Below are positions 801 through 42,871 of a DNA stretch of 52,658 bases, one piece after another. Positions within the stretch are counted from its first letter, which is position 1, and each line of letters opens with the position of its first letter. The position numbers and the translations under genes are program-made. This stretch comes from Nemertoderma westbladi. Its lineage: Eukaryota > Animalia > Xenacoelomorpha. The stretch covers positions 1-52,658 of the forward strand of contig JAUCBJ010006048.1 of the NCBI GenBank assembly GCA_032718475.1, given 5' to 3'. The notes under the pieces were generated by a model that had not been told where the DNA came from, searched no databases, and saw only the letters and a program-made list of their open reading frames with translations.

Positions 801-1691
801 AAGAAGCAGCATGTTCTAATGAGCTGAGGAGCCGTTGGCCTCCCTCTAGTGCTTCTGAGAGTACTCCTAAGTCATCAGCAAAGTCTAGATCAGTTAGGTA
901 CTTGGCAGGATTTCCTCGCCTTCTGGAGCCAGTAGGTGGAGTTATTATCACCCGATCATCATTATGATGATCTAAGGACAAAGGATATGCGTAGAACATA
1001 GCCAACAACAATTATGAACAAGAATGGTGCAAGTGTGTCTCCCTGGAGGATGCCCCATAACACTTCAAATGGTTCTGTGTCACCGTAAACAGTAGACACT
1101 TTCTTTTTTGATAACTCTTCAATTATCCTTCTAAGTGCCAAAATGGGCTCCATGGTCCCACGACCTTTACGGAACCCATTCTGATTTCCACAGAGCAGTC
1201 TCTCAATGGGATCCCTGATGCGATTTAATAGAATTCTATTGTATAGCTTTGCAGCAATCGAGATCAATGAGATTCCCCGAAAAGAACCATAGAGTATTAG
1301 GTTGTCCTTCTTGGGAACTGGCACCAACTTATTTGTTTTCATTTCTTGTGGGACTCTTGTTGTTTGGTACATTTTTTTGTCCTTCTTGGGAACTAGCACC
1401 AACTAATTTGTTTTCATTTCTTGTGGGACTCTTGTTGTTCGGTACATGTCTACTATGATGGGATAGGTGAGCTTTAATTAAACATTCAGGTATTTAAAGG
1501 ACCTCAGGGGGAACACCATCTACTCCACTGGCACGATTGGTCTTAATGCTCTTTGCAGCAGCCTTCACTTCAGCAAAGGAGATATCACAAATGGGAATAT
1601 CTGGGAGTACAGACTCAGACACTTTTACTTCTATAAAGTTATCAGGCAATACCCTGTCATTACTGAGGCGCCTGTCCAGTGGGCCTTCCAA
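801..1691 (-). pseudogene. LINE reverse transcriptase, disrupted
   Basis: ASGVDGVPPEVL, VPVPKKDNL, FRGISLISIAAKLYNRILLNRI, QNGFRKGR, GILQGDTLAPFLF, LDFADDL; frameshifts; the D-x-x-KAFD block is missing. Confidence 0.9.
1302..1447. repeat. 75-bp tandem duplication inside RT
   Basis: ttgtccttcttgggaact...ggtacat at 1302-1372 and 1377-1447. Confidence 0.9.
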
Positions 1692-2201
1692 CCATTGAGG
1701 TGATCGGCTGGTGATTCAGCCTTAACCTTGGTGGTTGGTTGGCTTTTTCGACCAGCAAGCAAGTTGATCGACCTCCATGCCTGGGATGATTGCCTGCTGT
1801 AGTCAGCATCATTGATGGCATCAACCTGTTGGTTTATTAGCTCCTGTAAATTTACAGAGTACTGCCTGTTCAGGGACCTAAATGCAGCCTTAACTGCATT
1901 CTTGGTCGCTGTAGTCTGTTTGAGTCGGGACTCTTTCTGCGCCTTGTAGAGGTCATTTCGGCACTTCTGAATTTTGTTGTCAGTCCAGGGGGCCCGTTTC
2001 CTGTTTCGAGGGTATACAGGAACTGTTTCTGCAGCTGCTAACTTAACTGCCTCTGTGAAGGCAGTATAGCCCTCACAGTGATCTGCCGCCTCAGAGGCAA
2101 GAACCTCATACCTGTTGCTCAGCTGTAGTGTGAAGCTGGATCTCAAGCAGGACCAGTCATGCCGCGGCAAGGCAGATTTCGTTGTTCTGCTAGCATGCAG
2201 A

Positions 2202-3320
2202 CTAAGGCATGCAGACCTTGGCCACAATAAGGCGGTGATCACTGCAGAAGGGTTGTAGTGTAAATGCATTACAGTCTTGTATAGAGCTCCTGTATTTCCT
2301 ACGAAACAGGATATGGTCTATCTGGGACTTGTGACCACTGGGTCCACTATGAGTCCATAGCTTTCCAGTTCGCTTCTTAAACTGGGTTCCAGCCGAGAAC
2401 AATCCATTTCCAGAGATCAAATCATGAAGATGGACGTAATTTCGGTTAACACTATTGCAATAGACCCAAGGCGATGTAGGTGATTGATGCAGACTTGCAT
2501 TAAAGTCTCCCAGGAATGTTAAGAATGCATGCTGATCCACTCCATCAGTAGCTGCTTGTAGATTCTGGTAGAAATTTTCCACCTCCTCTACAGGGGCAAC
2601 ACTAGTTGGAGAGTAGCACACAATCAGAACCACCTTAGGAAACTTCTTAGCCAGTCTTCCAGAACATGAGAAGCGGCAACGGATGATGCGGTTAGAGATT
2701 TGGTCTATTTTGTCCAATGCTGCATGTGCAGTTGGATTCATCAATAGACCAATTCCACCATTGCCACTATCATCTGCTGAAGCAAGGGCAAGTCGCCAAC
2801 TGCCCCCCATGTCCTTAATCAGAACTTCATCAGTCTGTCCAGTCTGCATTTGGTGCTCTTGAACACCCACTGCCCTAAGAGAAAGCTTATCTGCCAAGGT
2901 AGTCAGCTCACCTTGTCGCATTGGGGACCCGGGTGTTAGGGGGTTTACTGAGGCTAGTCTAGTGACTTGCCTCAGATTCACCAATGGCTTTGTTGGTCGG
3001 GGTGGAACATGAGAGTAGCCTCCAACTCCAGAATCCCTTTCCCCCTCACAATCTGGCCTCCCTGGTGACCCAGGGTTTGGGCCAGAAAGGTCATCAAGAA
3101 AGGGACTCAAATAATTGTTTGCCACTCTCTCTCCAGTAGGGGGTGACACAGGCAGCCGGTCAGGAGATAACTGACGCCTGTGAGGCCGATTGTGTCCAGT
3201 CATTCCACTGGCCTCTAGTGGCTGGACCTCCGCATTACTAATGTAATCCATAGTGGGGGTTGGGGGGTGCTTTTTTGCCGAGTCAGCGCTCAGGGCAAAT
3301 ACCACACCCTGGTTTGCCAT
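2202..3320 (-). pseudogene. LINE apurinic/apyrimidinic-like endonuclease (APE) domain
   Basis: Motifs VGVQEH, GGIGLLM, IVCYSPT, LGDFNA, QIDHIL, SDHRLIV. Confidence 0.92.
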
Positions 3321-3756
3321 TCCACAGGGTGGGTGTCGTAGTGGAGTCAGATATGAAGCCCATCACCCATATCTACTCTGGTGCACATGACCCACCATTG
3401 GCTGTGCAGCTCATCTGCTGAGTCATGCCCTGTACCCCTGCTGCCAGGTGCAGGTCGCAGTGAAGTGCACTCAGAGTGGACATGAGAACACTCTACTCCT
3501 GACCAGCCATTGGTAGATCACCATCTGCCTGGCCAGGCCATATACCCCTGCAGCCAAGTATATGGGTCCTTAATCCAGGACCAATGGCGTCCTTATCCCA
3601 GAACGAAGGAGGTCCTAGTTACAGGACCAGATTTGCCCTAGTAAGAGGGTCTATGCAGCTACAGGTGGCACCTCCTTTATGCTGCATGGAGGTGGCAAGT
3701 TTTCTTGTTCAATGACCTAGAATACCTGACCTGACCTGATGATGGGGTGATGGTAA

Positions 3757-22191: not shown

Positions 22192-23540
22192 GTGTCAAGT
22201 ATAATTGCAGTTATTCAAGTTACTTTTTTTACTCAGTTCATAAAGGTGTCAAGTACAATTGGTATAAAACATGTAATGCAAAATCTGACCTTTTTATTAA
22301 CACCCTACCAAAACTACAATCTGTAACTAACTTGATTCGATTTTGGTCATACATATAGATAGACCAAGAGTATTTATTGTTGTAGTTAAGAGTTTTAGTA
22401 CATCGTTCTTTTTTGTGTTTCAGTCACACTTTCATGACTTTGTGAATAAATTGGGAAGCTCTAACTTCGTCCTTAAATAGCGAGGAATTCTTTAGTCCCT
22501 TTGTAACCAACTATAATATACAGTAGCTTTTCCACGAATGGAACCTTCCAGCCTTTACCATGCCAATTTATATATATATATATATATTATATGAGTAAAT
22601 ATGGCCACTTAGTTTTTTTCTTTAACTTTTTTATTGTAAGGCTTTAGAAAACTATAGCTGATAGCTATCTATGGTAAATTGTCATAACCATGGATCACCC
22701 GAGCGCTTTTTTATATTATTGCATAATAATACATATACAAGGATTTTTCTGAAAATCGTAATATCTCTGTCATATATATTATATCTCAATACGATTCCTA
22801 TTCAAAATTCATAATTGATTACATTTATACAAGTTGCAATATGGCCCTCGCAAAATTATCTTCGAAATTACAAACTTTTAAAATAAAAATCATCCGAAAT
22901 ATTGTTCTTCAATAAAATAATATGCCATCTACAAGTTTTCAAAAAATTTAAGCAAACTAATTTTTTACAGTTTTTTTAGGTGACATACATATATAATATG
23001 TATGTCCAAACTTCCCCAAAAAATGAGTTTGAATATAATATTATGGACCTGATACTAACTTTTAGCTGCGAAACAAATTTTTTATAACATTCAATGATGG
23101 TTTTATTTTGCGACTTTTTATATTTGAGTTATGTAACTTACATACACATGACGTATTGAATTAGTGGCCCAATGAACACATTTACCATATTGTAAGGAAA
23201 TTAATTAATTTTTTTAGGTTTTCTCGGTGTGGCCATATGGTTGATATTAGAATCAACTACATCAAGCTATATTATTTTATTTAATTATACTCATTTTATA
23301 ATTATAATTGGCAGTATTATTATTATTTACGCAGAAACCGCATCTGAAAATTGTAGCCTTTTACATACTGCTTTACTAGTGTCTGGAATACAGTCAAAAA
23401 TCCAATTTCTTCGGTACATACTAAAACATAAAACAACCTGAAACAAGATAAACAACATGAACCAAGCTTAGATAAGCATAAAATACATTAGCGGAAACTA
23501 CCAGAGGGGGGGGGGGGGTCATATTGGCCCTCCTTCTCAA

Positions 23541-26500
23541 CTAAGTTCGCGTTTAGGATCTAAGTTGGCACATATGATCTAAGTTCGCATCTAGGATCTA
23601 AGATCACCTATAGGATATAAGTTCGCCTGCAGGATCTAAATTCGAGTCTAGGATCTAAGTTGGCGTATAGGATCTAAGTACGCCTATAGGATCTAAGTTC
23701 GCCTATAGGATCTAAGATCGCATATAAGATCGAAGTTCGCCTATAGGTTCTAAGTTCGCCTATAGGATCTAAGTTCGCGTATAGGATCTAAGATCGAATT
23801 TAGGATCTAAGTTCGCCTATAGGTTCTAAGTTCGCCTATAGGATCTAAGTTCGCGTATAGGATCTAAGATCGCATATCGGATCTAAGTTCGCCTTTAGGA
23901 TCTAAGTTCGCCTATATGATCTAAGTTCGCCTATAGGATCTAAGTTTGCCTATAGGATCTAAACAGAGTCTAGGATCTAAGTTGGCCTATATAGGATCTA
24001 AGTTCGAGTCTAGGATCTAAGATCGCGTCTAGGATCAAAGTTCGCCTCTAGGATCTAAGTTCGCTTTTAGGATCTAAGTTCGCCTATAGGATCTAAGTTC
24101 GAATATAGGATCTAAGTTCGCATATAGGATCTAAGTTCGCGTCTTGTATCTAAGATCGCACATAGAATCTAAGTTTGCGTATAGAATCTAAGTTCGCTTC
24201 TAGGATCTAAGTTCGCGCCTAGGATCTAAGTTCGCCTATAGGATCTAAGATCGCCTATAGGATCTAAGTTCAAATATATGATCTAAGTTTGCATATAGGA
24301 TCTAAATTCGCGTCTAGGATCTAAGTTCGCGTATAGGATCTAAGTTCGCGTCCAGGATCTAAGTTCGCGTCTAGGATTTAAGTTCGCATATAGGATCTAA
24401 GTTCGCCTATAGGATCTAAGTTCGCCTATAGGATCTAAGTTCGAAAATAGGATCTAAGATCGCCTATAGGATCTAAGTTCGCGTATAGGATCTAAGTTCG
24501 CGTCTAGGATCTAAGTTCGCGTCTAGGATCTAAGTTCGCGTCTAGGATCTAAGTTCGCATATATGATCTAAGTTCGCCTATAGGATCTAAGTTCGAAAAT
24601 AGTATGTAAGATCGCCTATAGGATCTAAGTTCGCGTATAGGATCTAAGTTCGCATATAGGATCTAAGTTTGCATCTAGGATCTAAGTTCGCGTCTAGGAT
24701 CTAAGTTCGCGTATAGGATCTAAGTTCGCATATAGGATCTAAGTTCGCGTCTAGGATCTAAGTTCGCATATAGGATCTAAGATCGCCTATAGGATCTAAG
24801 TTCGCGTATAGGATCTAAGTTCGCGTCTAGGATCTAAGTTCGCGTCTAGGATCTAAGTTCGCGTCTAGGATCTAAGTTCGCATATAGGATCTAAGTTCGC
24901 CTATAGGATCTAAGTTCGAAAATAGTATGTAGGATCGCCTATAGGATCTAAGTTCGCGTCTAGGATCTAAGTTCGCATATAGGATCTAAGTTCGCATCTA
25001 GGATCTAAGTTCGCGTCTAGGATCTAAGTTCGCGTATAGGATCTAAGTTCGCGTCCAGGATCTAAGTTCGCGTCTAGGATCTAAGTTCGCATATAGGATC
25101 TAAGTTCGCCTATAGGATCTAAGTTCGCCTATAGGATCTAAGTTCGAAAATAGGATCTAAGATCGCCTATAGGATCTAAGTTCGCGTATAGGATCTAAGT
25201 TCGCGTCTAGGATCTAAGTTCGTGTCTAGGATCTAAGTTCGCGTCTAGGATCTAAGTTCGCGTATAGGATCTAAGATCGCATATAGGATCTAAGTTCGCC
25301 TATAGGTTCTAAGTTCGCCTATAGGATCTAAGTTCGCGTATAGGATCTAAGATCGCATATAGGATCTAAGTTCGCCTTTAGGATCTAAGTTCGCCTATAT
25401 GATCTAAGTTCGCCTATAGGATCTAAGTTTGCCTATAGGATCTAAACAGAGTCTAGGATCTAAGTTGGCCTCTTTAGGATCTAAGTTCGAGTCTAGGATC
25501 TAAGATCGCGTCTAGGATCAAAGTTCGCCTCTAGGATCTAAGTTCGCCTTTAGGATCTAAGTTCGCCTATAGGATCTAAGTTCGAATATAGGATCTAAGT
25601 TCGCATATAGGATCTAAGTTCGCGTCTTGTCTCTAAGATCGCACATAGAATCTAAGTTTGCGTATATGATCTAAGTTTGCATAGGATTTAAGTTCGCGTA
25701 TAGAATCTAAGTTCGCTTCCAGGATCTAAGTTCGCGTCTAGGATCTAAGTTCGCCTATAGGATCTAAGATCGCCTATAGGATCTAAGTTCAAATATATGA
25801 TCTAAGTTCGCATATAGGATCTAAATTCGCGTCTAGGATCTAAGTTCGCGTATAGGATCTAAGTTCGCGTCCAGGATCTAAGTTCGCTTCTAGGATCTAA
25901 GTTCGCATATAGGATCTAAGTTCGCCTATAGGATCTAAGTTCGCCTATAGGATCTAAGTTCGAAAATAGGATCTAAGATCGCCTATAGGATCTAAGTTCG
26001 CGTATAGGATCTAAGTTCGCGTCTAGGATCTAAGTTCGCGTCTAGGATCTAAGTTCGCGTCTAGGATCTAAGTTCGCATATAGGATCTAAGTTCGCCTAT
26101 AGGATCTAAGTTCGAAAATAGTATGTAAGATCGCCTATAGGATCTAAGTTCGCGTATAGGATCTAAGTTCGCATATAGGATCTAAGTTCGCATCTAGGAT
26201 CTATGTTCGCGTCTAGGATCTAAGTTCGCGTATAGGATCTAAGTTCGCGTCCAAGATCTAAGTTTGCATATAGGATCTAAGTTCGCATCTAGGATCTAAG
26301 TTTGCATATAGGATCTAAATTCGCGTCTAGGATCTAAGTTCGCATATAGGATCTAAGTTCGCGTCCAGGATCTAAGTTCGCGTCTAGGATCTAAGTTCGC
26401 ATATACGATCTAAGATCGCCTATAGGATCTAAGTTCGCGTATAGGATCTAAGTTCGCGTCTAGGATCTAAGTTCGCTTCTAGGATCTAAGTTCGCGTCTA

Positions 26501-29500
26501 GGATCTAAGTTCGCATATAGGATCTAAGTTCGCCTATAGGATCTAAGTTCGAAAATAGTATGTAAGATCGCCTATAGGATCTAAGTTCGTGTCTAGGATC
26601 TAAGTTCGCATATAGGATCTAAGTTCGTATCTAGGATCTAAGTTCGCGTCTAGGATCTAAGTTCGCGTATAGGATCTAAGTTCGCGTCCAGGATCTAAGT
26701 TCGCGTCTAGGATCTAAGTTCGCATATAGGATCTAAGTTCGCCTATAGGATCTAAGTTCGCCTATAGGATCTAAGTTCGAAAATAGGATCTAAGATCGCA
26801 TATAGGATCTAAGTTCGCGTCTAGGATCTAAGATCGCATATCGGATCTAAGTTCGCCTTTAGGATCTAAGTTCGCCTATATGATCTAAGTTCGCGTCTAG
26901 GATCTAAGTTGGCCTATATAGGATCTAAGTTCGAGTCTAGTATCTAAGATCGCGTCTAGGATCAAAGTTCGCCTCTAGGATCTAAGTTCGCCTTTAGGAT
27001 CTAAGTTCGCCTATAGGATCTAAGTTCGAATATAGGATCTAAGATCGCATATCGGATCTAAGTTCGCCTTTAGGATCTAAGTTCGCCTATATGATCTAAG
27101 TTCGCGTCTAGGATCTAAGTTGGCCTATATAGGATCTAAGTTCGAGTCTAGTATCTAAGATCGCGTCTAGGATCAAAGTTCGCCTATAGGATCTAAGTTC
27201 GCGTCTTGTATCTAAGATCGCACATAGAATCTAAGTTTGCGTATATGATCTAAGTTTGCATAGGATCTAAGTTCGCGTATAGAATCTAAGTTCGCTTCTA
27301 GGATCTAAGTTCGCGTCTAGGATCTAAGTTCGCCTATAGGATCTAAGATCGCCTATAGGATCTAAGTTCAAATATATGATCTAAGTTTGCATATAGGATC
27401 TAAATTCGCGTCTAGGATCTAAGTTCGCGTATAGGATCTAAGTTCGCGTCCAGGATCTAAGTTCGCGTCTAGGATCTAAGTTCGCATATAGGATCTAAGT
27501 TCGCCTATAGGATCTAAGTTCGCGTATAGGATCTAAGTTCGAAAATAGGATCTAAGATCGCCTATAGGATCTAAGTTCGCGTATAGGATCTAAGTTCGCA
27601 TATAGGATCTAAGTTCGCATCTAGGATCTACGTTCGCGTCTAGGATCTAAGTTCGCGAATAGGATCTAAGTTCGCGTCCAGGATCTAAGTTCGCGTCTAG
27701 GATCTAAGTTCGCATATAGGATCTAAGATCGCCTATAGGATCTAAGTTCGCGTATAGGATCTAAGTTCGCGTCTAGGATCTAAGTTCGCGTCTAGGATCT
27801 AAGTTCGCGTCTAGGATCTAAGTTCGCATATAGGATCTAAGTTCGCCTATAGGATCTAAGTTCGAAAATAGTATGTAAGATCGCCTATAGGATCTAAGTT
27901 CGCGTCTAGGATCTAAGTTCGCATATAGGATCTAAGTTCGCATCTAGGATCTAAGTTCGCGTCTAGGATCTAAGTTCGCGTATAGGATCTAAGTTCGCGT
28001 CCAGGATCTAAGTTCGCGTCTAGGATCTAAGTTCGCATATAGGATCTAAGTTCGCCTATAGGATCTAAGTTCGCCTATAGGATCTAAGTTCGAAAATAGG
28101 ATCTAAGATCGCCGATAGGATCTAAGTTCGCGTATAGGATCTAAGTTCGCGTCTAGGATCTAAGTTCGTGTCTAGGATCTAAGTTCGCGTCTAGGATCTA
28201 AGTTCGCGTATAGGATCTAAGATCGCATATAGGATCTAAGTTCGCCTATAGGTTCTAAGTTCGCCTATAGGATCTAAGTTCGCGTATAGGATCTAAGATC
28301 GCATATAATATTAATTCGATACACCCCCAGGCGGGGTAAATGGAAACCAGTAAAATTTATGTACATAAATAAATAGAAAATAAATTGAATACAATTATTA
28401 GTTATTGAGATGCGAGACGGGAAAGTGGAGGGCAGTCGCTGCAGTTCAGTGCATGATATCGTCGTGTACATGGGAGGTTACAGTACTGACATATACATTC
28501 GGTGGATAGCGAGTGGAAAGGCGTTTGGTTGACGCAGATTAGGTGGTGGAACCCATGGGCGGTCGCACGAGTAATAACGTGCCTGTTACGCTGACCAGCC
28601 ATTTTCCAATGGGAGCTCTGGAATCCGGGGCCGTCCAGGAAAGATTCTGTGATGAAGTTGTTGTTGCGTTCGCGTCGGTGCTCGCGGTATCTGGAGGAGA
28701 CGTCATCAGTTAATAAGTCTGGATATTTCAATAGTACTGCGGCCATAAATGGAGGTTCGTTAATCAAGTTTAGAGCGAGTGTAGAGGAGGCTGATGTGTG
28801 GAGAGACAACATTCTTTTGATGTGTTGCGTCTTTATTTTATCCAATTCTTTAAGGTTCTGTAATGTTAGGTATTTACCAATACTAGTTATTAGGTAGAGT
28901 GCTGAAGGGGCAATTTTCATGTTGAATATTTTTAGTCCTGTTTCAATAGAGAGTAAACGGAGATGTGTCAGTGAACCGATTGTTGAATAAGCAGTGGCTT
29001 TCTTTAACTGGATGTGCTCAGAGAAGCAGAGGGACGGTTGAAGGACTAGATCGCATATAGGATCTAAGTTCGCCTTTAGGATCTAAGTTCGCCTATATGA
29101 TCTAAGTTCGCCTATAGGATCTAAGTTTGCCTATAGGATCTAAACAGAGTCTAGGATCTAAGTTGGCCTATATAGGATCTAAGTTCGAGTCTAGGATCTA
29201 AGATCGCGTCTAAGTTTGCCTATAGGATCTAAACAGAGTCTAGGATCTAAGTTGGCCTATATAGGATCTAAGTTCGAGTCTAGGATCTAAGATCGCGTCT
29301 AGGATCAAAGTTCGCCTCTAGGATCTAAGTTCGCCTTTAGGATCTAAGTTCGCCTATAGGATCTAAGTTCGAATATAGGATCTAAGTTCGCATATAGGAT
29401 CTAAGTTCGCGTCTTGTATCTAAGATCGCACATAGAATCTAAGTTTGCGTATATGATCTAAGTTTGCATAGGATTTAAGTTCGCGTATAGAATCTAAGTT

Positions 29501-31807
29501 CGCTTGTAGGATCTAAGTTCGCGTCTAGGATCTAAGTTCGCCTATAGGATCTAAGATCGCCTATAGGATCTAAGTTCAAATATATGATCTAAGTTCGCAT
29601 ATAGGATCTAAATTCGCGTCTAGGATCTAAGTTCGCGTATAGGATCTAAGTTCGCGTCCAGGATCTAAGTTCGCGTCTAGGATCTAAGTTCGCATATAGG
29701 ATCTAAGTTCGCCTATAGGATCTAAGTTCGCCTATAGGATCTAAGTTCGAAAATAGGATCTAAGATCACCTATAGGATCTAAGTTCGCGTATAGGATCTA
29801 AGTTCGCGTCTAGGATCTAAGTTCGCGTCTAGGATCTAAGTTCGCGTCTAGGATCTAAGTTCGCATATAGGATCTAAGTTCGCCTATAGGATCTAAGTTC
29901 GAAAATAGTATGTAAGATCGCCTATAGGATCTAAGTTCGCGTATAGGATCTAAGTTCGCATATACTGTAGGATCTAAGTTCGCATCTAGGATCTAAGTTC
30001 GCGTCTAGGATCTAAGTTCGCGTATAGGATCTAAGTTCGCGTCCAGGATCTAAGTTTGCATATAGGATCTAAGTTCGCATCTAGGATCTAAGTTTGCATA
30101 TAGGATCTAAATTCGCGTCTAGGATCTAAGTTCGCATATAGGATCTAAGTTCGCGTCCAGGATCTAAGTTCGCGTCTAGGATCTAAGTTCGCATATACGA
30201 TCTAAGATCGCCTATAGGATCTAAGTTCGCGTATAGGATCTAAGTTCGCGTCTAGGATCTAAGTTCGCTTCTAGGATCTAAGTTTGCGTCTAGGATCTAA
30301 TTTCGCATATAGGATCTAAGTTCGCCTATAGGATCTAAGTTCGAAAATAGTATGTAAGATCGCCTATAGGATCTAAGTTCGTGTCTAGGATCTAAGTTCG
30401 CATATAGGATCTAAGTTCGCATCTAGGATCTAAGTTCGCGTCTAGGATCTAAGTTCGCGTATAGGATCTAAGTTCGCGTCCAGGATCTAAGTTCGCGTCT
30501 AGGATCTAAGTTCGCATATAGGATCTAAGTTCGCCTATAGGATCTAAGTTCGCCTATAGGATCTAAGTTCGAAAATAGGATCTAAGATCGCCTATAGGAT
30601 CTAAGTTCGCGTATAGGATCTAAGTTCGCGTCTAGGATCTAAGTTCGTGTCTAGGATCTAAGTTCGCGTCTAGGATCTAAGTTCGCATATAGGATCTAAG
30701 TTCGCCTATAGGATCTAAGTTCGAAAATAGTATGTAAGATCGCCTATAGGATCTAAGTTCGCGTCTAGGATCTAAGTTCGCGTCTAGGATCTAAGTTCGC
30801 ATATAGGATCTAAGTTCGCCTATAGGATCTAAGTTCGAAAATAGTATGTAAGATCGCCTATAGGATCTAAGTTCGCGTCTAGGATCTAAGTTCGCGTCTA
30901 GGATCTAAGTTCGCATATAGGATCTAAGTTCGCCTAAAGGATCTAAGTTCGCCTATAGGATCTAAGTTCGCATATAGGATCTAAGTTCGCGTCTAGGATC
31001 TACGTTCGCCTATAGGATCTAAGTTCGCATATATGATCTAAGTTCGCGTCTAGGATCTAGGTTCGCCTATAGGATTTAAGTTCGCATAGGATCTAAGTTC
31101 GCGTATAGGATATAGGTTCGCCTATAGGATCTAAGTTCGAAAATAGTATGTAAGATCGCCTATAGGATCTAAGTTCGCCTATAGGATCTAAGTTCGCCTA
31201 TAGGATCTAAGTTCGCCTATAGGATCTAAGTTCGCCTATAGGATCTAAGATCGCCTATAGGATCTAAGTTCAAATATATGATCTAAGTTCGCATATAGGA
31301 TCTAAGTTCGCGTATAGGATCTAAGTTCGCCTATAGGATCTAAGTTCGCCTATAGGATCTAAGTTCGCGTATAGGATCTAAGTTCGCGTCTAGGATCTAA
31401 GTTCGCGTCTTGGTTCTAAGTTCGCGTCTAGGATCTAAGTTCGCGTCCAGGATCTAAGTTCGCATATAGGATCTAAGTTCGCCTATAGGATCTAAGTTCG
31501 AAAATAGTATGTAAGATCGCCTATAGGATTTAAGTTCGCGTATAGGATCTAAGTTCGCATATAAGATCTAAGTTCGAAAATAGGATCTAAGATCGCCTGA
31601 TCTAAGTTCGCCTATAGGATCTAAGTTCGCCTATGGGATCTAAGTTCGCGTCTAGGATCTAAGTTCGCGTCTAGGATCTAAGTTCGCATATAGGATCTAA
31701 GTTCACCTATAGGATCTAAGTTCGCGTCTAGGATCTAATTTCGCATATAGCATCTAAGATCGCATATAGGATCTAAGTTCGCCTATAGGATTGAAGTTCG
31801 CCTTTAG
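23541..31807. repeat. 19-bp satellite (TAGGATCTAAGTTCGCNTM), roughly 390 copies; short remnants near 32580, 32960-33195, 37035-37180 and 37700
   Basis: Period of 19 measured directly (ggatct at 24488, 24507, ...). Confidence 0.98.
28308..29047 (-). mobile_element. 5'-truncated non-LTR retrotransposon (post-RT region + CCHC zinc knuckle) inserted in the 19-bp satellite
   Basis: 12-bp TSD AGATCGCATATA at 28296-28307 and 29048-29059; frame open from the 5' break (VLQPSLCFSEHI...KIFNMKIAPSALY) to CQYCNLPCTRRYHALNC and the stop at 28402. Confidence 0.85.
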
Positions 31808-31904
31808 TACACTACTAGTACTGTACTAGATCGGTCGAGGGAGCTCGGACAAATGGTTGAAATATTTCGGTGACAAATATTAATTGTTGAGAAACTTATT
31901 AGGG

Positions 31905-32525
31905 TTAAAAATGCCATTTGAGTATGGCCGGTCCATATTGTAACCCATATTATGTCAGGTTGAAAATTACCTTTTGATTATTTTGCCGGCGTTTTTTTTG
32001 TCCCGCAATACTACACCATATGGTGTTACATTGTTTTTTCATCGTGTGATCTGATAATCTCACCCCCTACACAGAGATACTAAAAATTATATTAAATGTC
32101 ATTTCAATATGGCCGGGCCATATTGTAACCCATATTATCTCAGGTTGAAAATTACCTTTTAGATTATTTTGTCGGCGTTTTTTTGTCCCGCAATACTACA
32201 CCATATGGTGTTACATTGTTTTTTCATCGTGTGATCTGATAATCTCACCCCCTACACAGAGATACTAAAAATTATATTAAATGTCATTTCAATATGGCCG
32301 GGCCATATTGTAACCCATATTATCTCAGGTTGAAAATTACCTTTTAGATTATTTTGTCGGCGTTTTTTTGTCCCGCAATACTACACCATATGGTGTTACA
32401 TTGTTTGTTCATCGTGTGATCTGATAATCTCACCCCCTACACAGAGATACTAAAAATTATACTAAATGCCAGTTGAATATGGCCGGGCCATATTGTAACC
32501 TAGGGTGTATATTATCTCAGGTTGA
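31905..32525. repeat. 185-bp tandem repeat, ~3.3 copies
   Basis: atatggccgggccatatt at 32107, 32292 and 32477 (variant near 31922). Confidence 0.92.
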
Positions 32526-33057
32526 TATAATGCCAAATACATGCGAAATACAATTTGCAACATATGGCCTCAGTTCTAACCTAGAATCTAAGTTCGCATC
32601 TAGGATCTAAGTTCGCATATAGGATCTAAGTTCGCATATCGGATCTTAATCAACCTGTCGAATATTTGAACGTTAATAACTAGGGAAATCCTCGATGAAA
32701 CACTACTAGTACTAGGTCGGTCTAGGGAGCTCGGACAAACCGTTGAAATATTTCGGTGAGAAATATTAATTGTTGAGAAAATTATTATTAGGGTTAAAAA
32801 AGGCTTTTTCTCAGACATCAACAATATCCACTCCCAAACTTGATATTACTAAATTAAATATGGCCGGGCCATATCGTAACATATATTATCTCAGGTTGAT
32901 ATAATGCCAAATACATGCGAAATACAATTTGTCAACATATGGCCTCAGTTCTAAGTTCTAACCAAGGATCTAAGTCCGCCTATAGGATCTACGTTCGCGT
33001 ATCGGATCTAAGTTCGCGTCTAGGATCTAAGTTCGCGTCTTGGATCTAAGTTCGCGT

Positions 33058-33417
33058 CTAGGATCTAAGTTCGCGTTTAGAATCTAAGTTCGCGTATAGG
33101 ATCTAAAGTTCGTTTATAAGAACTAAGTTCGCGTCTAGGATTTACTTTCGTGTATAGGATATAATCTACGTTAGCCTATATGATCTAAGTTCGGATAAAT
33201 CGTTGAAGTATTTCAATGAAAAATATTATTAATTGTTGAGAAAATCATTATTAGGGAGGGAAAAAGGCTTTTTCTCAGACATCAACAACATCCACTCCCA
33301 AACTTAATACCATTAAATTAAATATGGCCGGGCCATATCGTAACATATATTATCTCAGGTTGATATATTGCCAAATACATGTGAAATATAATTTGTCAAC
33401 ATATGGCCTTGACTTTC
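33058..33417. repeat. ~360-bp direct repeat, left copy
   Basis: Matches 37035-37406 from ctaggatctaagttcgcgtttagaatc to catatggccttgactttc. Confidence 0.9.
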
Positions 33418-33909
33418 TAAATCATTATTTATATAAGGACATTCCAAAATTACCTTTTTAATTATTTGTCGGAAAATGCTTGACCCGCAATACTTACCTT
33501 CCCATATTACGTGATCCAAATATTTACCGTACCGATTAAAAAAGTACAATATTTAATACTGAAACAAAATATATTCATTAAAACTAACAGCACATATTTT
33601 AGCACACTGAAGTAAAGTTTTACTTTACCATAATGATACATGCAGAAGAAACAAGATAAGAGTAATAAACAACATTTACTGCTACAATATTTACACTTTA
33701 AAATATTAATTTGAATAACTAAATTGAAGTAATAAAAGGAAAATGAGAAGATGTATTAAAAATGTCTACTCTAAATTAGAAACGAAATTAACAAAGTTTA
33801 GCACGAATCTGCAATCCGAATGTTTACATCGCACTTAATAAGATATTTTTATTTTTGAGATATTCTTACATCTGCAGTCTGTATGTAATGTAAGTTAAAA
33901 CTTCTTAAA

Positions 33910-34583
33910 GCTCGCATGTGTTATAAAACACAATACTAAAACATACGCAACAAAACTAATATAGAAAACTTACTTAACCTCTGAACACATTTAGGTGCTC
34001 GCATGTGTTATAAAACACAATACTAAAACATACGCAACAAAACTAATATAGAAAACTTACTTAACCTCTGAACACATTTAGGTGCTCGCATGTGTTATAA
34101 AACACAATACTAAAACATACGCAACAAAAATAATATAGAACACTTACTTAACCTCTGAACACATTTAGGTGCTCGCATGTGTTATAAAACACAATACTAA
34201 AACATACGCAACAAAACTAATATAGAAAACTTACTTAACCTCTGAACACATTTAGGTGCTCGCATGTGTTATAAAACACAATACTAAAACATACGCAACA
34301 AAACTAATATAGAAAACTTACTTAACCTCTGAACACATTTAGGTGCTCGCATGTGTTATAAAACACAATACTAAAACATACGCAACAAAAATAATATAGA
34401 ACACTTACTTAACCTCTGAACACATTTAGGTGCTCGCATGTGTTATAAAACACAATACTAAAACATACGCAACAAAACTAATATAGAAAACTTACTTAAC
34501 CTCTGAACACATTTAGGTGCTCGCATGTGTTATAAAACACAATACTAAAACATACGCAACAAAAATAATATAGAAAACTTACT
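33910..34583. repeat. 87-bp tandem repeat, ~7.7 nearly identical copies
   Basis: gctcgcatgtgttataaaacac... starts at 33910, 33997, 34084, 34171, 34258, 34345, 34432 and 34519. Confidence 0.97.
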
Positions 34584-34753
34584 ATAAAATAAATCACTAT
34601 TATGATGTCCAAGTCAAAGTCATATTATTACGTGGTGGTGCGTTAGTTGGAGAATTTTCTGTATTTGACAGTAATTGTTGATATAAGTCATCTGAATTTA
34701 TAGCATCACTATTAGTATTTATATTATCACTATTAGTAGTACACAATCCAAAA

Positions 34754-35455
34754 TCATGGGTAGCTAGTAGTAGATGTGTTGGAGAAAGCTTTCGCTTTCT
34801 CCAATCTATGATAGGCATCCACCGATTGTTTTATTGTCTTTGTGGAGTCGTAGGTCCTCTTCTGGGTGATACCACTGTGACCCATATGTTGGACCACATT
34901 TTCTACGTCGCCTGGGTCACCAGGTAGCCGCTGGTTGCATATGCTCAGGGTATGACGAACATATGTACTTCCCGCCTTGCTCTTCGATTCTGGTAGAATT
35001 AATTTCCACAGATTGTTAAAGAGTGTTGAAGTATTGTCAACGGAGTTTCCACTGGGATTTGTAAACATCAGGTCTGATTTACTAGCAAGTGGACTGAATA
35101 GTGTGCGGCCAAACTCAAACAAAGCAAGTAACATATTATAAACGGCTTCAGGCATTGTTAACTTAATGGGCCCTTGATAATTAGATTTGTGATTAAACAC
35201 CTTTATGACCCTGACACCATCATCCGGACAATGCACCACGTCTTTAAATTCAGTTACTAACAGGTTCCGTACAGCACCAGCACGTGCTCCGTTTTTATAT
35301 GACAATATGGCCATAACATATGTTTGCATTTGAACCAAAGAAAATTCATCGCTAACTTTCGATTCAATGTTTAATAGATCACGTTGAAGACGGAGGGAGA
35401 TGGGGTCAGTTTCAAAACGTTGAAGTTCCTCTGCAGTCGGGTATTCTAACTCCAT
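34754..35455 (-). CDS. Tyrosine recombinase (phage-integrase fold) catalytic domain, 233 aa
   Basis: NGAR58AGAVRNL, NHK90, T164YVR167H, HMGH193S, Y202: R-K-(H)xxR-H-Y order and spacing; no stops or frameshifts. Confidence 0.82.
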   Translation of the reverse strand: MELEYPTAEELQRFETDPISLRLQRDLLNIESKVSDEFSLVQMQTYVMAILSYKNGARAGAVRNLLVTEFKDVVHCPDDGVRVIKVFNHKSNYQGPIKLTMPEAVYNMLLALFEFGRTLFSPLASKSDLMFTNPSGNSVDNTSTLFNNLWKLILPESKSKAGSTYVRHTLSICNQRLPGDPGDVENVVQHMGHSGITQKRTYDSTKTIKQSVDAYHRLEKAKAFSNTSTTSYP

Positions 35456-35799
35456 GATACCGATACTATTATACTGATACGGTACGATAGGCTGATAGGC
35501 TGATAGGCCTATGGTAGAACGATAAGTACAAAAAATTATGTACTGGCTTGGTCCTTAGTCAGAGTAGTGCCGGTACGTTATCCTGTTATCTGTATGGCCA
35601 GACAGCCAGATGACTAATTACATGATTATGGATTACAGGAGTACTCCTGCGTCCTGTCAGGTTGTACTGCTGCAGGCCTACTGTGTACCGGGGTACCAGT
35701 ACCGGTACTCAATGCTGAGATGCTCAAGGACAATATCCCACAGCCACTAGCAGACTTAGCAATACAGTATTAAAGTAGGCCTATTGGTACCGGTAATAC

Positions 35800-36915
35800 A
35801 GCTGGTAACGCGTAGTTCGATACATTGGGTGATATATCACCAGTTTCAGAGTTTTAACATTAACACAGTACGCGTAGGTGATACGCGTAGCTACGCGTAG
35901 GTCCTACGCGAACTACGCGTAGGTGCTACCCATAACTATGCCTATACGACGTTTATCATTAGTAAGCAAACATATTCCAAAGCGGTTCGGTACTAAAATA
36001 AGACAATACTGTATGTGATGTTCAATATACAACCATCAAATGGTTTCAACAGAAATGTCTCCTATACCTGTATATATAATCCATGTAGTGGCATACTGTA
36101 CGCTACTACACATTCTTCACTTAATGTGTTGCGCGCGCAATACTGTTTTATAATAATGTTTAGAGTTCAAAAATAGTTTACAAGGAAATAGGCAGATGGT
36201 TCTTATCGATTCTCCATTGCTATTTATTGCCTTTATTCACGAGAGGGAAAGGATATATTTAATATGCTAAATCCGTCGAGAATGGAAGGGGGAGAATAAT
36301 TGTCCACCATGATTGGTTGCACTTGTTATTTTACTAAACAATTGAATTTTACAGTATTATCAGCTTTTCACTTAACCACTTCACCGAGACTGGTAGCTTA
36401 TACAACTGTAGAATATTTAAATTATCCAATGGAAACAAAAAGACTTGGTATAATATACGTGGATTTTAAGTTTACTTTTATTCATCCTGTCCCTGTGATG
36501 TTTGTATATGAAAGAGCCGAATATTATTTGATACCAGTGCTCTGTAGGAGAAATGAGTTTCAGATTATGTTATTCCTTGTGTGATAAATCAGATACCTGA
36601 AATATACAGTACTGTACCAATATTTGCCTAACAACTCAAGCAATACCGGACCTGAAATGAAAAATCTTTGTTATCAGGCTGTTACGCGTAGCTACGCGTG
36701 CACCTACGCGAAGTGCTACGCCGTAGTTTTAAAATACATATGCGTAGTTCCAAAATACCTACGCGTAGTTTTAAAATGCCTACGAGTGGTTTTTAAAAAG
36801 GCAGTAAGTCTGGCCCTACCGGTAAATGACAGCAATTGAAGTTACAAACTACGCGTAGGACTACGCTTAGGTCGGAAAGATTTACCCCAACTACAACTAC
36901 AGCTACACCAGTCAG
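35800..36915. repeat. Segment bounded by two clusters of the palindromic TACGCGTA motif (possible MITE); ends approximate
   Basis: Repeated tacgcgtag at ~35808-35925 and ~36682-36870 around unrelated AT-rich DNA. Confidence 0.5.
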
Positions 36916-37034
36916 GAGTCAGCTGGTACTAGTCACCGGGCATCAGCCACCCCCCCCCCCCCCCACCCCCCCTCTCTATAGACTTACACCAAGGAAAATA
37001 AATTAGTGATCATTAATGTGTGCCAAGTTGTAAC

Positions 37035-37406
37035 CTAGGATCTAAGTTCGCGTTTAGAATCTAAGTTTGCGTATAGGATCTAAAGTTCGTTTATACTGTA
37101 AGAACTAATTTCGCGTCTAGGATTTACTTTCGTGTATAGGATATAATCTACGTTAGCCTATATGATCTAAGTTCTAAGTTCGGACAAATCGTTGAAGTAT
37201 TTCAATGAAAAATATTAATTGTTGAGAAAATAATTATTAGGGTTAAAAAGGCTTTTTCTCAGACATCAACAATATCCACCCCCGAACTTGATACTGTATC
37301 ATTAAATTAAATATGGACGGGCCATATCGTAACATATATTATCTCAGATTGATATATTGCCAAATACATGTGAAATATAATTTGTCAACATATGGCCTTG
37401 ACTTTC
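37035..37406. repeat. ~370-bp direct repeat, right copy
   Basis: Copy of 33058-33417 with two CTGTA insertions and a few other differences. Confidence 0.9.
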
Positions 37407-40072
37407 CACCACATGCTGCACTGTACATATACTTCCTTTCCTATACTGTACAGGCCTACAGTACAGCTGTTACCCAAATATACATATGATAATAAATATT
37501 TCTTTATAGGCCTACTTATTTTTGAACAGTTAATATAATACGCTTTATTTACCTCACGTACCACTGATAACATTTATTTTTACCGAGCGAATGAGGTGAG
37601 CGAGGTCAATAAGACAAGAATAGAAATATAAAATATATAATAAGAAGATAATCTTGAGAAAGGTTATTTTTTGTTTATGTCAAAGTTCAATCGCATGTAT
37701 AGGATCTAAGTTCTTACCAGGATCTATGTTTACCAATCATCATAATGAGGATCTAGGTTCGCTAGGAAGGCGCAATTTTGTGTAAGCTTTGGGTGAGATA
37801 TAAAAATTATTGCTCACCACTAAGTATGAGGGAGTTGAAACTAACTCGGTTTCAATTGTCATGATGCAATCTCATTAACCTTTATCGTGGAGGTGTCCTA
37901 CCTGAATAAAGACTCTTGATATACTGTAAGGTGTATAAGGTTGAATAAAATTGGAAGACGGTTGGACTGGGACATAATGACTAAGGCTAAATATTAAAAG
38001 CTAAAAAAATCTGGCTACACTATCTTCCGAGACGTGTGTAATGGACGGATCAAATTTAATATACTTTGATTATTATTGTTATAAAATACCTGAGGTGTTC
38101 TAGAACTAGATGGTAAAGTAATTGACTGGGAGGAAAAAGGTATCTTTATATTTTTTCAAAAAACTGTTTATTCCAAACATAGACCTCATACGTCTACTAG
38201 AGTATGAGATGAAGCGTAAATCGCAAAGTTTATATAAGCCAATTTTGTCTCTAGTTAAAACAAAAATATTACATTAAAAAACCATCCGGCGGCGTCTAGA
38301 TTAAACATTTAACATTGAACAAGGTGTGAAATTAGTGATGTAAATTTGTCAACCGATCCACACTTAACGTTTCTAGATGTATTTTGAGCATTTAATAAAA
38401 CTAACAAAAACATTTCCTCTAATTAAGTAATTTACTGCACATCTTCACTGTACAGTATTAGATGTAACACATTGGCCACATAATATACAGTGTAATATAC
38501 AACAAGTCATTATATTGATTCAGATACATTAATGTGTGGTGTTGGTTTCAGTATAGGATAGACATATGGCCACGGTGGCCATATGTCTGCAAAAGTAACA
38601 ATATGGCCCAAAAGTTACTCTATGGCCACCATATTATCCCTACCGCCCACCATATGGCCACCTACCTAGGGACCAGTAGGCCATATGGTTACCTATAATA
38701 TCCATTATTATATATAAATTCTTGTCTGACTGTGGACTTGTGTGACTTTGTTGACTGGTTTCTTATCGGGAGTAGCTGGGATAGCGCAGTGGTTTCACTC
38801 TCACTACGAGATAGCACTTGAGCGAGCCACCCACAGGAAGATATCCATATTTCCTTGAACAACACTGCCAGATTTTTATTTTTCGTACAGGATTCAATGA
38901 TATGGATTCAATGGACAAGCTATTGAACCACTAACCCTACAGTACCGAAATTATAAAACCGCAGGTTACGCACAATTAAAAAGTTAACGAATTAATTCAA
39001 CCAGTCACAGTTCAGGTTTTAATTATAACTATATTAGTTATTAATAAAATAAAAATTTTATTTTACCTTCCCACTAAGTCGATGTTTCTCTACATCTCAA
39101 GTTACTTTTTTTACTCAGTTCATAAACGTGTCAAGTATAATTGCAGATATTCGAGTTACTTTTTTTACTCGGTTCATAACGGGGTCAAGTATAATTGCAG
39201 TTATTCAAGTTACTTTTTTACTCAGTTCATAAAGGTGTCAAGTATAATTGCTTTGTTTCCAGTTACTTTTACTCAGTTCATAAGGGTGTCAAGTATAATT
39301 GCTTTACTTTCAGTTACTTTTACTCAGTTCATAAAGGTATCAAGTATAATTGCAGTTATTCAAATTGCTTTTCTACTCAGTTCATAAAGGTGTCAAGTAT
39401 AATTGCTTTACTTCCAGTTACTTTTACTCAGTTCATACAGGTATCAAGTATAATTGCAGTTATTCAAATTGCTTTTCTACTCAGTTCATAAAGGTGTCAA
39501 GTAGAGTTGCAACAGAGACCTGTTTTTCTTAATCCCGGTAAACCAGAGACCTACCCAGAGAATTATTTTGAAAAATACCGGATACCAGAGCCGGAGATCA
39601 GAGACTTTGCATATCTTTGTTCTTACAGTTTGATTAGTCCCATAAAGCACAAACAGGTACATATGGACTGATAACTGTTTTTATATGGTTGAATTACAGT
39701 AAATCCAACCCATTTCAACCCTTAGTTCACACTACCGAGTCAAAGTAAAAGTCAAAAGACAAAATGTAAAACATAATCACAAGAAATATAATTTGTTCTA
39801 GAATGCCCTTATGTATTTATTATATTAGGCCTATACATAATGTATTATTATTTATTATTGCTACCTAGCTATATTTAATTTATTTTGACTTTGACTCGGT
39901 AGTGTGAACGCGGCCTTATCCATTGGAAGAAAATAAGCACACGTACAGTTTGGGGGACTTAATTAAAATTAATTTGGTTATTTGTTTATTAGTTCGTTCT
40001 TATTTTGTTATTTTTAATTAATAATATGTTACATAAATTTGTTTTGCGCCATAGGTACCGGTACTTTGTTAA

Positions 40073-42871
40073 CACTAGAACAGCCGGACGCGTCAATTGA
40101 CGAAAATCAAAATGAAAGATGCTCTATTTTTTAAACTATTTGTTTATATACCATGATTCTCCATGACTTTTATTATTTTTGGCTAATGGTTCGAATGCAG
40201 GAAAAAAAAAGTGTACAAATTTTATACAAAATTTTTAAATCATTGATTGTCTTTAACAGCCACATGCGTCAATTGACGCAATTTCGGTTTTTCCTATAAA
40301 GTTCAGAAAGAAATATAATTTGATGATAGAAAACATGACAATTATTAGTTAGATTTATTTAGACATTATATTATTTAGACAATTATTAATTCATATTACT
40401 GAATGCACTTATTGCACACAAGTGCTTGGCACTTGCCACACATTGGTAGATTACACTTTGCACACTTGGAAACAGTTTTGTTGCGTTGGCAGTTGCTCCT
40501 GATTGCACAGGTTACTCGCTTCCTTGCGGCCAAAGGCAAAGGGGAAGCAACAGCTGGCTCATATGCGGGCTCATCAATCTGGCCAGCAACATCTTTCCGT
40601 AGTTCAGATGACAGTTCCATTAGAAATCGACGACGACTCATTTGGCTACCTGTCTTCTTCCGATACAGAATCCATGCATTTACTCCTGAAATATCAAGGA
40701 TATTGAAGAATACAGCTAAGGGCCATCGTCTGCAGCCCGCCTTTGTTGACATCATCCGAGCCATGGAATCCAGTAAGTCTACTCCAAATTTGTTGTTGTT
40801 ATAGTACACAATCATCTCTGGTTTACGTTTTCCATCATCCTGCCTCCTTGAGCCATTGTGTTGGGTTGATATGATATGTACTACCTTCTTTGCTTTGGCT
40901 TGGTAACGAGTGAGATGAACTTGACCAGTTTGGAAAAAAACAGAATCATGGAGTTGAAGTTTCTGAGAAGGTGGGAGTTCGCGCCGGTTAGATCGCACAG
41001 TCCCGACTAGAGTGATACGTCGTTGCAACAAATTTTCGGCAAGACCTTTGTTGGTAAAAAAATTGTCTGTTGTCACATTATAACCCTTACCATACAAAGG
41101 CTCTGTCAGCTTCATAACAACATGGGTTCCAAGACTAGTTTCTCGAGTTTCATCCTTCCCCAGGTAGGGTAACATGTTGTAGCAGAATTTGGTTTCTACT
41201 TCTGCTAAAATCCAAAACTTTATACCAAACTTATCTGGCTTGTTCGCCATGTATTGAGTAAATTTGCACCTTGCCTTTGTAGGAAACAATTGTTCATCGA
41301 CTGTCATGGATACATCTGGAACATAGCTTTTTTGGCTATTCTCAATGAAGCGATTCAGTACCCAAGAGATCATACAAAAAGTTATCAGTTTCTAGATTTG
41401 CTTGGCGAGTAGATTTTTTATCAAAACGTAAATACTTCTTGATTTCGCGGAAACGATTACGTGGCATTGTTCTGGAAAATGCTGGACATCCCATGCTTTT
41501 TGACCACAATAAGTCTAGTGGAAAATTGCGTTGGTTCATGACACCTCTTAGATATAGTAACCCAAAAAAGGACTCCAACTCTTCCTCAGACAGCAACCAA
41601 TCTGGTAAGAATGTTTGTGCGTATTCCTTTGTACAGTCGAGAATGAAACGTATACATCCCTCATCGATCAGCAGTCTCCATGCATCTGCTGGTGTTTGGA
41701 TATTACGACAATAATTTGTCACTCCAACCCTTGCTGTATAAACATTATGTCTCTCATACCGACCAGCAGGTATTTGCCCAGCAAATTTCCATTTTGTCCC
41801 ATCTTTTCCTTCATGAACCGGAGCATCATTATCAACATCTGTCTCAGACTCACTAGATGAATCAGAATTTTCTTCATTGACTTCACCCGCTTCCGATTCA
41901 TGGTCGTCGCTTTCATCACCACTTTCATCACTCCGGATGTCCAAAAGACGTACCAAGGCTTCTTCAGCTGTATAACGCCGCGCCATAGCAATAAACTTAT
42001 ACAATATGGGTGTAATATTCAGACTTACCTACTTGGGCTATGTAAATAAAAGTATTGCAGTATTTATGATTATATATTATTATTATTTTTGATTGGTAGC
42101 ATACATCAAGCTTAGGTTATATGTTTGTATACTTACTTAGAATATTTACTACTTTATCCCTAGACCATCAGACTCTGTAAGTCAGTACAGCAGTACTGTA
42201 CATACTACTGTATGTACATACATACTATATGAATATTAGATTATAATTATTTATTTATTAGATTATTAATATTAATATTATTATATATAGCATATAATGT
42301 TTAGTAGGCATGCTGTAGTACAGGCAGAGAGGGGGGGGGGGGAGACTCTGGCTGAACACACTGCCTGACTTTACCCCCTAACAGAAATAATAAGCAAGTT
42401 TATCTATAGTACACTAGACACCACTGCCCAGTCAGTCAGTACAGCACAAAAGCAGATTGTCAAGATGTCAAGTTGCTCTAGGCCTATAGGCCTAACTAAC
42501 TACCACTATTCCTGAAACACTGCCTGATGTACTACAGTGAGCCTAACAGGGAATAATAATTATTAAAAAATAGAATAATAAACTAAGTTTATCCATAATA
42601 TACAGTGTTAGACACCACAGCGCATCAGTCAGTCAGTACAGCTCCACTACTGCACTAAGGCAGACTATCAGGTTGTCAAGAAATACCAGCAGGCCTACAC
42701 ACACAGTTATCTGGAATAGTCAGATACTGGTAGGCCCTGATACCACATTCTACCTACAATATTGACAGAGACCTGCAATGTATAAAGACAAGTATTGCTG
42801 ATACAATGTTGACTTGTGTCAATTGACGCAGTTGGCTGTTAACGTGTGTCAAAATTCCGGCTGTTCTAGTG
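40073..42871 (-). mobile_element. Full-length piggyBac transposon (2799 bp)
   Basis: TTAA TSD at 40069-40072 and 42872-42875; perfect 16-bp TIR CACTAGAACAGCCGGA; subterminal inverted repeats containing GTCAATTGAC; empty site present in three sister hAT copies. Confidence 0.96.
40396..42004 (-). pseudogene. piggyBac DDD transposase (~535 aa if joined) with one frameshift
   Basis: ORFs 41342-42004 + 40396-41373; MPRNRFREIKKYLRFD, VDEQL, KPDKFGIKFW, TDNFFT, YNNNKFGVDLLD, RRWPL, Cys-rich C-terminus; frameshift at the A5 run 41376-41380. Confidence 0.95.

Follow-up and report, generated by a model that had tools for sequence, protein, structure and literature searches.

How did 16 kb of DNA, more than half of it satellite, come to interrupt a single copy of a repeated spacer in Nemertoderma westbladi (Xenacoelomorpha), and did the tyrosine recombinase (YR) encoded inside it have a part in the move? 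The locus lies in a 52,658-nucleotide stretch (contig JAUCBJ010006048.1 of assembly GCA_032718475.1, forward strand), here called the window, in which an earlier note made from the letters alone had proposed a mobile element with satellite cargo. We found a clean insertion bordered by a short direct repeat, with a motif shared by its two ends and an incomplete YR inside, and we consider a defective copy of a Crypton-type YR element to be the leading explanation.

A clean insertion in one of eight spacer copies

In a search of the window for the spacer motif, one of eight copies was interrupted, by an insert of 16,113 bp (22591-38703). The split copy begins at 22559 and continues from 38704, while all seven sister copies (14167, 17703, 19532, 43898, 47029, 48865, and 50744) are uninterrupted and retain the empty site. 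The sister at 48865 is nearest to both flanks of the filled copy, with two mismatches per side plus gap columns at the minimum, and both flanks share its allele; they are therefore two halves of one spacer, and the single clean insertion that had been proposed is confirmed.

The empty target is a TA-rich 28-bp palindrome with 12-bp arms around 4 bases, the strongest and longest in about 2 kb of spacer. The target had been described as a (TA)n site, which is right as to its TA-rich composition, but it is a palindrome and not a plain (TA)n tract. A 5-bp direct repeat, ATTAT, stands on the two sides of the insert (22586-22590 and 38704-38708) and is present once in the empty site. The left flank has (TA)9 where all seven sisters have (TA)4, a gain of ten TA bases that agrees with the roughly five extra units noted before; apart from this gain, the empty site is regained to the base around the insert. 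The left end and its target duplication, formerly regarded as ambiguous, can thus be placed, with 16,113 bp between the two ATTAT copies. TA targeting is seen at one site, this TA-rich palindrome with its ten extra TA bases.

Contigs from four of six sequencing runs of one organism were also compared: X1 (study P1), X2 and X3 (one sample, study P2), and X4. One of these runs could be the source of the window. Spacer contigs of X1 and X3 begin to align exactly at 38704.

Organization of the insert

The insert and its borders are made up as follows, with the strand in brackets where one is assigned.

22565-22585: left half of the TA-rich target palindrome, together with the ten extra TA bases, (TA)9 against (TA)4; the extra bases are in none of the seven empty sisters
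22586-22590 (+): left 5-bp direct repeat ATTAT, the likely crossover core, from comparison of the flank with the sisters
22591-23540: left end, AT-rich and non-coding, 950 bp, with the left arm of the imperfect terminal inverted repeat
22599, 22839, and 23231: the three ATATGGCC motifs of the left end
23541-28307 (+): 19-bp satellite array, part A, from tandem-repeat detection
28308-29047 (-): nested 3' fragment (740 bp) of a LINE-like ORF2 with a 12-bp duplication, AGATCGCATATA, from look-alike protein clusters and the duplication
29048-31801 (+): 19-bp satellite array, part B, from tandem-repeat detection
31802-33430 (+): repeated module of 19-bp units, a unique stretch, and a palindromic ATATGGCC pair, with 13 ATATGGCC motifs
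31909-32500 (+): 185-bp array within the repeated module, from tandem-repeat detection
33910-34583 (+): 87-bp array, 7.7 copies, 98% matches, from tandem-repeat detection
34754-35455 (-): open reading frame (ORF) for a YR catalytic domain, 233 aa from the ATG, from fold, catalytic residues, and homologs
35798-37005: nested very-high-copy repeat, 1.2 kb, with TACGCGTA-rich, partly inverted ends; limits approximate, from depth bins
37026-37406 (+): further copy of the module, with a 373-bp unit (37026-37398), from self-comparison of the insert
37407-38703: right end, non-coding, about 1.3 kb, with five ATATGGCC motifs in its last 150 bp that form two hairpins
38704-38708 (+): right 5-bp direct repeat ATTAT, where the spacer continues

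Arrays make up about 8.8 of the 16.1 kb, over half of the insert. The 19-bp array alone runs to 434.5 copies across 23541-31801, and its parts A and B have blocks of 500-750 bp in common at 97-99%. As the earlier note had stated, the 19-, 185-, and 87-bp arrays are present and match nothing in the window beyond the insert. Its description of everything besides the coding regions as arrays went too far: the insert also has non-array ends of ~0.95 and ~1.3 kb, a module of ~370-470 bp repeated several times, and the nested high-copy repeat, which had been overlooked.

Only three stop-to-stop ORFs of at least 100 aa are present, namely the YR, the LINE-like fragment, and a frame opposite that fragment. 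No ORF for a DDE transposase, reverse transcriptase/RNase H, RepHel, or PolB was found, and the eight insert ORFs scanned gave no significant Pfam match, in line with the absence of these enzymes reported previously. The LINE-like fragment has no Pfam match of its own; one of its look-alike protein clusters carries zf-RVT in 51% of members, and together with the 12-bp duplication this bears out the nested LINE fragment seen before. An Rfam scan gave 0 matches, and self-comparison revealed no long repeat between the two ends of the insert. The YR is the sole gene; it comes first when the insert is read from its right end and points inward, and the arrays lie downstream of it. The ORF starts 3.25 kb from that end, of which 1.6 kb is nested repeat and module.

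In X1-X3 the summed depth of the 35.8-37.0-kb repeat is in the thousands, compared with tens in neighboring sequence, and the repeat is therefore a separate nested high-copy element. Neither a terminal repeat nor a target duplication could be fixed for it. It adjoins the YR on the upstream side. The 373-bp module is joined head to tail (37398 back to 37026) in contigs of X1, X2, and X3, so it forms tandem arrays elsewhere.

The two ends share a motif

The window contains 25 copies of ATATGGCC where 1.18 are expected, and 24 of these are inside the insert. Three are in the left end and five within the final 150 bp of the right end; the modules hold 15, and the YR ORF one, which is attributed to chance. 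The enrichment should be read with the caveat that 15 of the 24 copies belong to internal repeated modules. The motif often has a GTAAC- or GTTAC-like lead-in. The inverted ends that had been claimed exist as a match between the outer ends of the insert, but only as an imperfect inverted repeat of ~25 bp, equaled in 8 of 1000 shuffles and 9 of 6096 outside windows. The left arm begins within the direct repeat; the right arm stops 4 bp short of the junction, on its inner side. Sites of tyrosine recombinases consist of inverted arms around a short spacer of 6-8 bp, and arm-type sites also occur.

The insert encodes the catalytic domain of a tyrosine recombinase

The recombinase residues R58, K90, R167, H193, and Y202 are conserved in the ORF. 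Across an alignment of 67 sequences, from which 9 of 75 homologs were left out (mostly short matches and one repetitive protein), K90 is invariant and R58, H89, R167, H193, and Y202 are nearly so. The structure model has a pLDDT of 88, and its top matches among PDB structures are XerH, integrases, and Cre (best E 1.8e-5). Language-model neighbors of the ORF include eukaryotic clusters as well as phage integrases. The earlier identification of a tyrosine recombinase therefore stands as to fold and catalytic residues, with the qualification that only the catalytic domain is present.

The 75 homologs are 22-36% identical to the ORF, and many extend well past the YR domain. Ten match Phage_integrase at E<=0.01, and none matches DUF3504 or DUF3435 at that threshold; two match a SAM-like integrase family and two a Myb family, weakly. 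The ORF itself has no Pfam match at E<=1. At least 110 residues lie upstream of the domain in 32 of the 75 homologs, and 16 of the 75 have an upstream C2H2-like motif. By homology, the insert's YR belongs to an animal family covered by neither DUF3504 nor DUF3435. A tree of 66 sequences, built without reference families, leaves the insert's branch unresolved.

The named homologs are from a crinoid (Anneissia) and cnidarians (Hydractinia and Clytia). The Hydractinia homolog (XP_057304499.1), 25% identical to the insert YR, belongs to a cluster of eight members that are 92-99.8% identical to their representative and are located on contigs of four different lengths. Eight near-identical members on differing contigs suggest a young and mobile family. 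In Hydractinia symbiolongicarpus these multi-copy YR proteins are 945 aa long (P0066 and P0101-P0107) and are annotated as uncharacterized.

Other searches added little context. The exact ORF is absent from the protein collection searched, a PDB sequence search returned nothing relevant, and a word-based protein search gave no relative and, as weak evidence, no long fused form. There were no relatives in IMG/VR viral contigs. The genomic context of a relative comes from one metagenome locus of 1,947 bp, which has no copy of the end motif.

An open frame rich in N, S, and T (34600-34830, minus strand) runs in a different frame across the end of the YR ORF and is closed by three stops. It is possibly the original linker after a frame shift; contigs have small gaps there.

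Copies of the ends and of the recombinase in other contigs

Contigs of X1 and X2/X3 cover both ends of the insert. The left end occurs in several variants in X1-X3, and an internally deleted form, joined from 22779 to 23276 with 496 bases replaced by 57, is found in X1, X2, and X3. The right end is represented by one contig of 1.2-1.3 kb per run in X1, X2, and X3, with 3-11 differences. When the depth of the lowest-depth contigs is taken as one, single contigs of the left end reach 4.6-5.1, those of the right end 2.6-6.8, and those of the YR 3.2-6.4. These ratios are rough and give no copy number; the spacer, with eight copies in the window, scores just 3.9-7.2. In X1 the two ends differ (4.9 left vs 2.6 right). 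The variants and the raised depth indicate that the ends belong to a small family, and they support the view that the insertion is mobile and multi-copy, carries satellite, and has a YR within it. No match was found for the right-end pattern in the genome contigs searched, nor for the 19-bp unit pattern in the genome or viral contigs searched.

The YR has a different distribution. Over about 470-510 positions, the main YR contigs of X1-X3 show 13 differences from the window, and they and the X4 contig leave the insert's sequence on opposite sides of the ORF (see below), so other copies of the YR are flanked differently on both sides and have only 34613-35455 (840 bp) in common with the insert. 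In X2 and X3, a low-depth contig (35408-35559) spans the junction that the window itself shows upstream of the ORF. What the insert holds is thus a genuine arrangement of the YR, but a truncated and less common one; the YR occurs mostly in other surroundings, those of an intact parent or of an unrelated donor. Contigs of run X4 are found on the YR and on the nested high-copy repeat, with next to no cover of the ends, the 19-bp units, or the spacer; this run could be a transcriptome or another lineage, and its missing cover was not used as evidence.

Comparison with known recombinase and satellite-carrying elements

CryptonV, reportedly described by Kapitonov and Jurka in Repbase Reports in 2012, is the closest candidate group. 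It comprises YR DNA transposons of cnidarians, among them families described as inserting specifically into microsatellites (PMC8869645), and is named in PMC5753468, PMC4455052, PMC13465017, and a supplementary table of PMC6681497. As described, CryptonV shares with the insert a YR as sole enzyme, animal hosts (the insert YR has cnidarian homologs), and perhaps insertion at a microsatellite-like site. What sets the insert apart is its 16-kb length, its satellite content of over half, and its truncated YR. The earlier note did not consider this closest prior art, and its view that the element fits none of the known groups was overstated in light of CryptonV microsatellite targeting, the 4-6-bp repeats of Cryptons, and the Helentrons that carry satellites.

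Cryptons in general are described as flanked by 4-6-bp direct repeats (PMC13465315), and in an active CryptonF a CACCG/CAYCG match between donor and target supports a donor-target model (PMC9977147). Like them, the insert has a YR with catalytic residues and fold, no reverse-transcriptase domain in the ORFs scanned, and a short end repeat open to interpretation as donor-target homology. Cryptons commonly have non-autonomous derivatives. The match of ATTAT to the target is of the 4-6-bp kind, though weak, coming from one AT-rich site. CryptonA was rejected because neither the YR ORF (E<=1) nor its 75 homologs (E<=0.01) match DUF3504. Animal CryptonA and CryptonI are described without terminal repeats and without a C-terminal domain, whereas the insert shows an imperfect inverted match between its ends and many homologs of its YR extend past the YR domain.

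Fungal Starships, as described, are likewise large, with a YR as first gene facing inward, a short direct repeat and an inverted repeat, and cargo downstream (PMC9156397, PMC10104507). They differ in having DUF3435, in being fungal, and in measuring 75-195 kb in the described examples compared with 16 kb here, and the insert's cargo is satellite instead of genes and its YR is incomplete. The ORF and its homologs have no DUF3435 match, so a Starship assignment was rejected. The donor-target model is supported for Starships as well, with a circle hypothesized and not shown (PMC10104507). DIRS, Ngaro, and VIPER elements were set aside for want of a reverse transcriptase/RNase H ORF in the insert and of a long repeat between its ends.

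Among elements with other enzymes, Helentrons and HINEs are described as having conserved ends and variable central tandem arrays, with several array types per element (PMC9659126, PMC12628747), much like the insert. These and other satellite-carrying transposons are rolling-circle or DDE elements, whereas the insert departs from the Helitron2 end rules. Helitron2 elements are described with a 5' asymmetric terminal inverted repeat (ATIR) 0-2 bp from the end and a 3' ATIR 20-30 bp from the end, upstream of a hairpin (PMC3627910); the end motifs and folds of the insert do not follow this layout, and Helitron2 membership was rejected on these end features.

A Polinton or endogenous nimavirus was rejected as well, as there is no PolB, capsid, or core viral gene among the three ORFs of at least 100 aa. 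The repeat-targeting YRs described from nimaviruses have a C2H2 finger and an N-terminal SAM-like domain and are distinct from the YRs of DIRS, Starships, and Cryptons; the nimaviruses that carry them sit in simple-repeat tracts, with some reads joining both ends across the tract, and non-viral relatives of these YRs occur in decapods (PMC10871703). They resemble the insert's YR family in architecture; the insert has no viral gene.

Origin of the insert

For the insert as a defective, non-autonomous Crypton-type copy, moved by a full-length relative of its YR, we see roughly an even chance. A Crypton-type origin is favored because the 5-bp direct repeat fits both the 4-6-bp repeats of Cryptons and the donor-target match of CryptonF, and because no palindrome in the spacer is stronger than the target, which resembles the geometry of YR sites. 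Also in its favor are the ATATGGCC copies and the imperfect inverted repeat at the ends, the variants and depth of these ends in X1-X3, and the fold, residues, and homologs of the YR. The likeness to CryptonV follows from the named homologs being cnidarian and crinoid, as CryptonV is reported from cnidarians with microsatellite targeting. The copy is taken to be non-autonomous, and its YR may be a passenger, because the N-terminal SAM-like region is missing and other copies of the YR are flanked differently.

Under this Crypton-type model, an intact YR of the same family, with a C2H2 finger, SAM-like and catalytic domains, and sometimes a Myb-like tail, would be supplied in trans, would bind ATATGGCC-type sites at both ends, and would excise the element, probably as a circle. 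The circle would then recombine with the TA-rich palindrome at a shared ATTAT core, leaving ATTAT on both sides. The ten extra TA bases were likely carried from an earlier TA-rich site, which seems simpler than slippage of a four-unit tract in a young copy. The size of the element would be secondary: the 19-, 185-, 87-, and ~373-bp repeats likely grew by unequal exchange, as the 97-99% blocks common to the two halves of the 19-bp array suggest, and the LINE fragment and the high-copy repeat would have landed inside the element. Each move would transplant kilobases of satellite.

Several observations weigh against this model. There is one insertion site, its junction can equally be read as insertion at T|T without duplication, and the ATTAT match is weak because it comes from a single case in AT-rich DNA. 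Among the contigs listed, none of X1-X4 bridges either junction (the left one was skipped as a repeat), and neither end is seen beside a foreign flank. The insert YR is a catalytic domain only, without a SAM-like or C-terminal region anywhere in the insert; a hidden Markov model of the upstream region, from 32 of the 75 homologs, recovered 12 of 12 left-out members and found nothing in the insert. The match of the main X1-X3 YR contigs has its limit at 34613, past which they continue with 214-260 other letters, the X4 contig stops matching at 35455 and continues with 124 other letters, and YR depth does not track right-end depth (6.4 vs 2.6 in X1 and 3.7 vs 6.8 in X3). Animal CryptonA and CryptonI are also described as having no terminal repeats (PMC3212892).

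Much of this would be accommodated by a non-autonomous Helentron/Helitron2-like or DDE element with subterminal binding repeats and satellite arrays that had captured the 840-bp YR segment as a passenger, which we regard as possible though doubtful. Satellite arrays at the center of the element are well established for Helentrons, which also capture host fragments (PMC9659126, PMC12628747); the T|T reading and the right-end hairpins would suit such an element, as would the limitation of shared YR sequence to 34613-35455 and the independent variation of YR and end depths. It would, however, have to manage without the Helitron2 end layout, which is absent in either orientation, without Helitron1 TC/CTRR ends, and without the clean terminal inverted repeat that DDE elements need; no trace of RepHel or a DDE transposase is present in the insert, and it would be a coincidence for a passenger YR to have landed in an element whose ends are YR-like. 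The insert might instead be a nested stack or transposed block, in which a smaller element or satellite region took up independent YR, LINE, and high-copy insertions and was copied here a single time through repair or recombination. Two or more nested insertions are indeed present, the 373-bp module is tandem elsewhere, and the depths of the left and right ends are unequal within one sample (4.9 vs 2.6 in X1). Yet one motif is common to the internal modules and the two outer ends, those outer ends are paired by the inverted repeat, and the empty site is regained to the base apart from the TA gain, and we consider this history improbable. Least probable by far is a misjoin in which the assembler connected the spacer array to an unrelated locus through a TA run. 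Both junctions are TA-rich and lack a bridging contig among those listed, but two misjoins would need to rebuild one spacer exactly, the flanks best match the same sister with the same allele, and the boundaries coincide with paired end motifs.

A broader extension of the Crypton-type model is that the insert belongs to an animal counterpart of Starships. These would be large cargo elements moved by a Pfam-unclassified C2H2/SAM-like/YR family widespread in invertebrates, homing to TA-rich palindromes and transplanting multi-kb satellite arrays; the modules of these arrays would be organized around the motif that the element's own recombinase binds, so that the recombinase would both breed and spread satellite. 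This we think unlikely.

Surroundings of the insert

From 10581 to 52658 the window is a higher-order mosaic of a 51-54-bp satellite and the repeated 1.5-2-kb spacer, with eight core copies. The next spacer copy holds a piggyBac-type element (40073-42871) with a TTAA duplication and perfect 16-bp terminal inverted repeats, whose transposase (PF13843) is split across two frames. With the 16-kb insert, the spacer array has therefore received two different clean insertions. A broken LINE with endonuclease and reverse-transcriptase pieces lies outside the insert at 962-3362 (minus strand).

Significance

Transposons that carry satellites are well known, Helentrons being an example (PMC9659126), and microsatellite-targeting YR elements are known too; their combination at 16 kb was not found in literature searches of sources other than Repbase Reports. 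The main texts of two reviews of satellites derived from transposable elements contain 0 occurrences each of "Crypton" and "tyrosine recombinase" (PMC9659126, PMC12628747), and a literature search covering sources other than Repbase Reports returned no description of large animal YR elements or of the family to which the insert's YR belongs. Should the YR be a passenger, or the element an ordinary CryptonV derivative, the insert would be a good but routine entry for a repeat library. The resolved empty and filled sites provide a testable model of ends and target for a poorly described animal YR family without Pfam coverage. New satellite loci are usually credited to rolling-circle and DDE elements, and a YR element that moves about 9 kb of arrays would, if true, be an added route.

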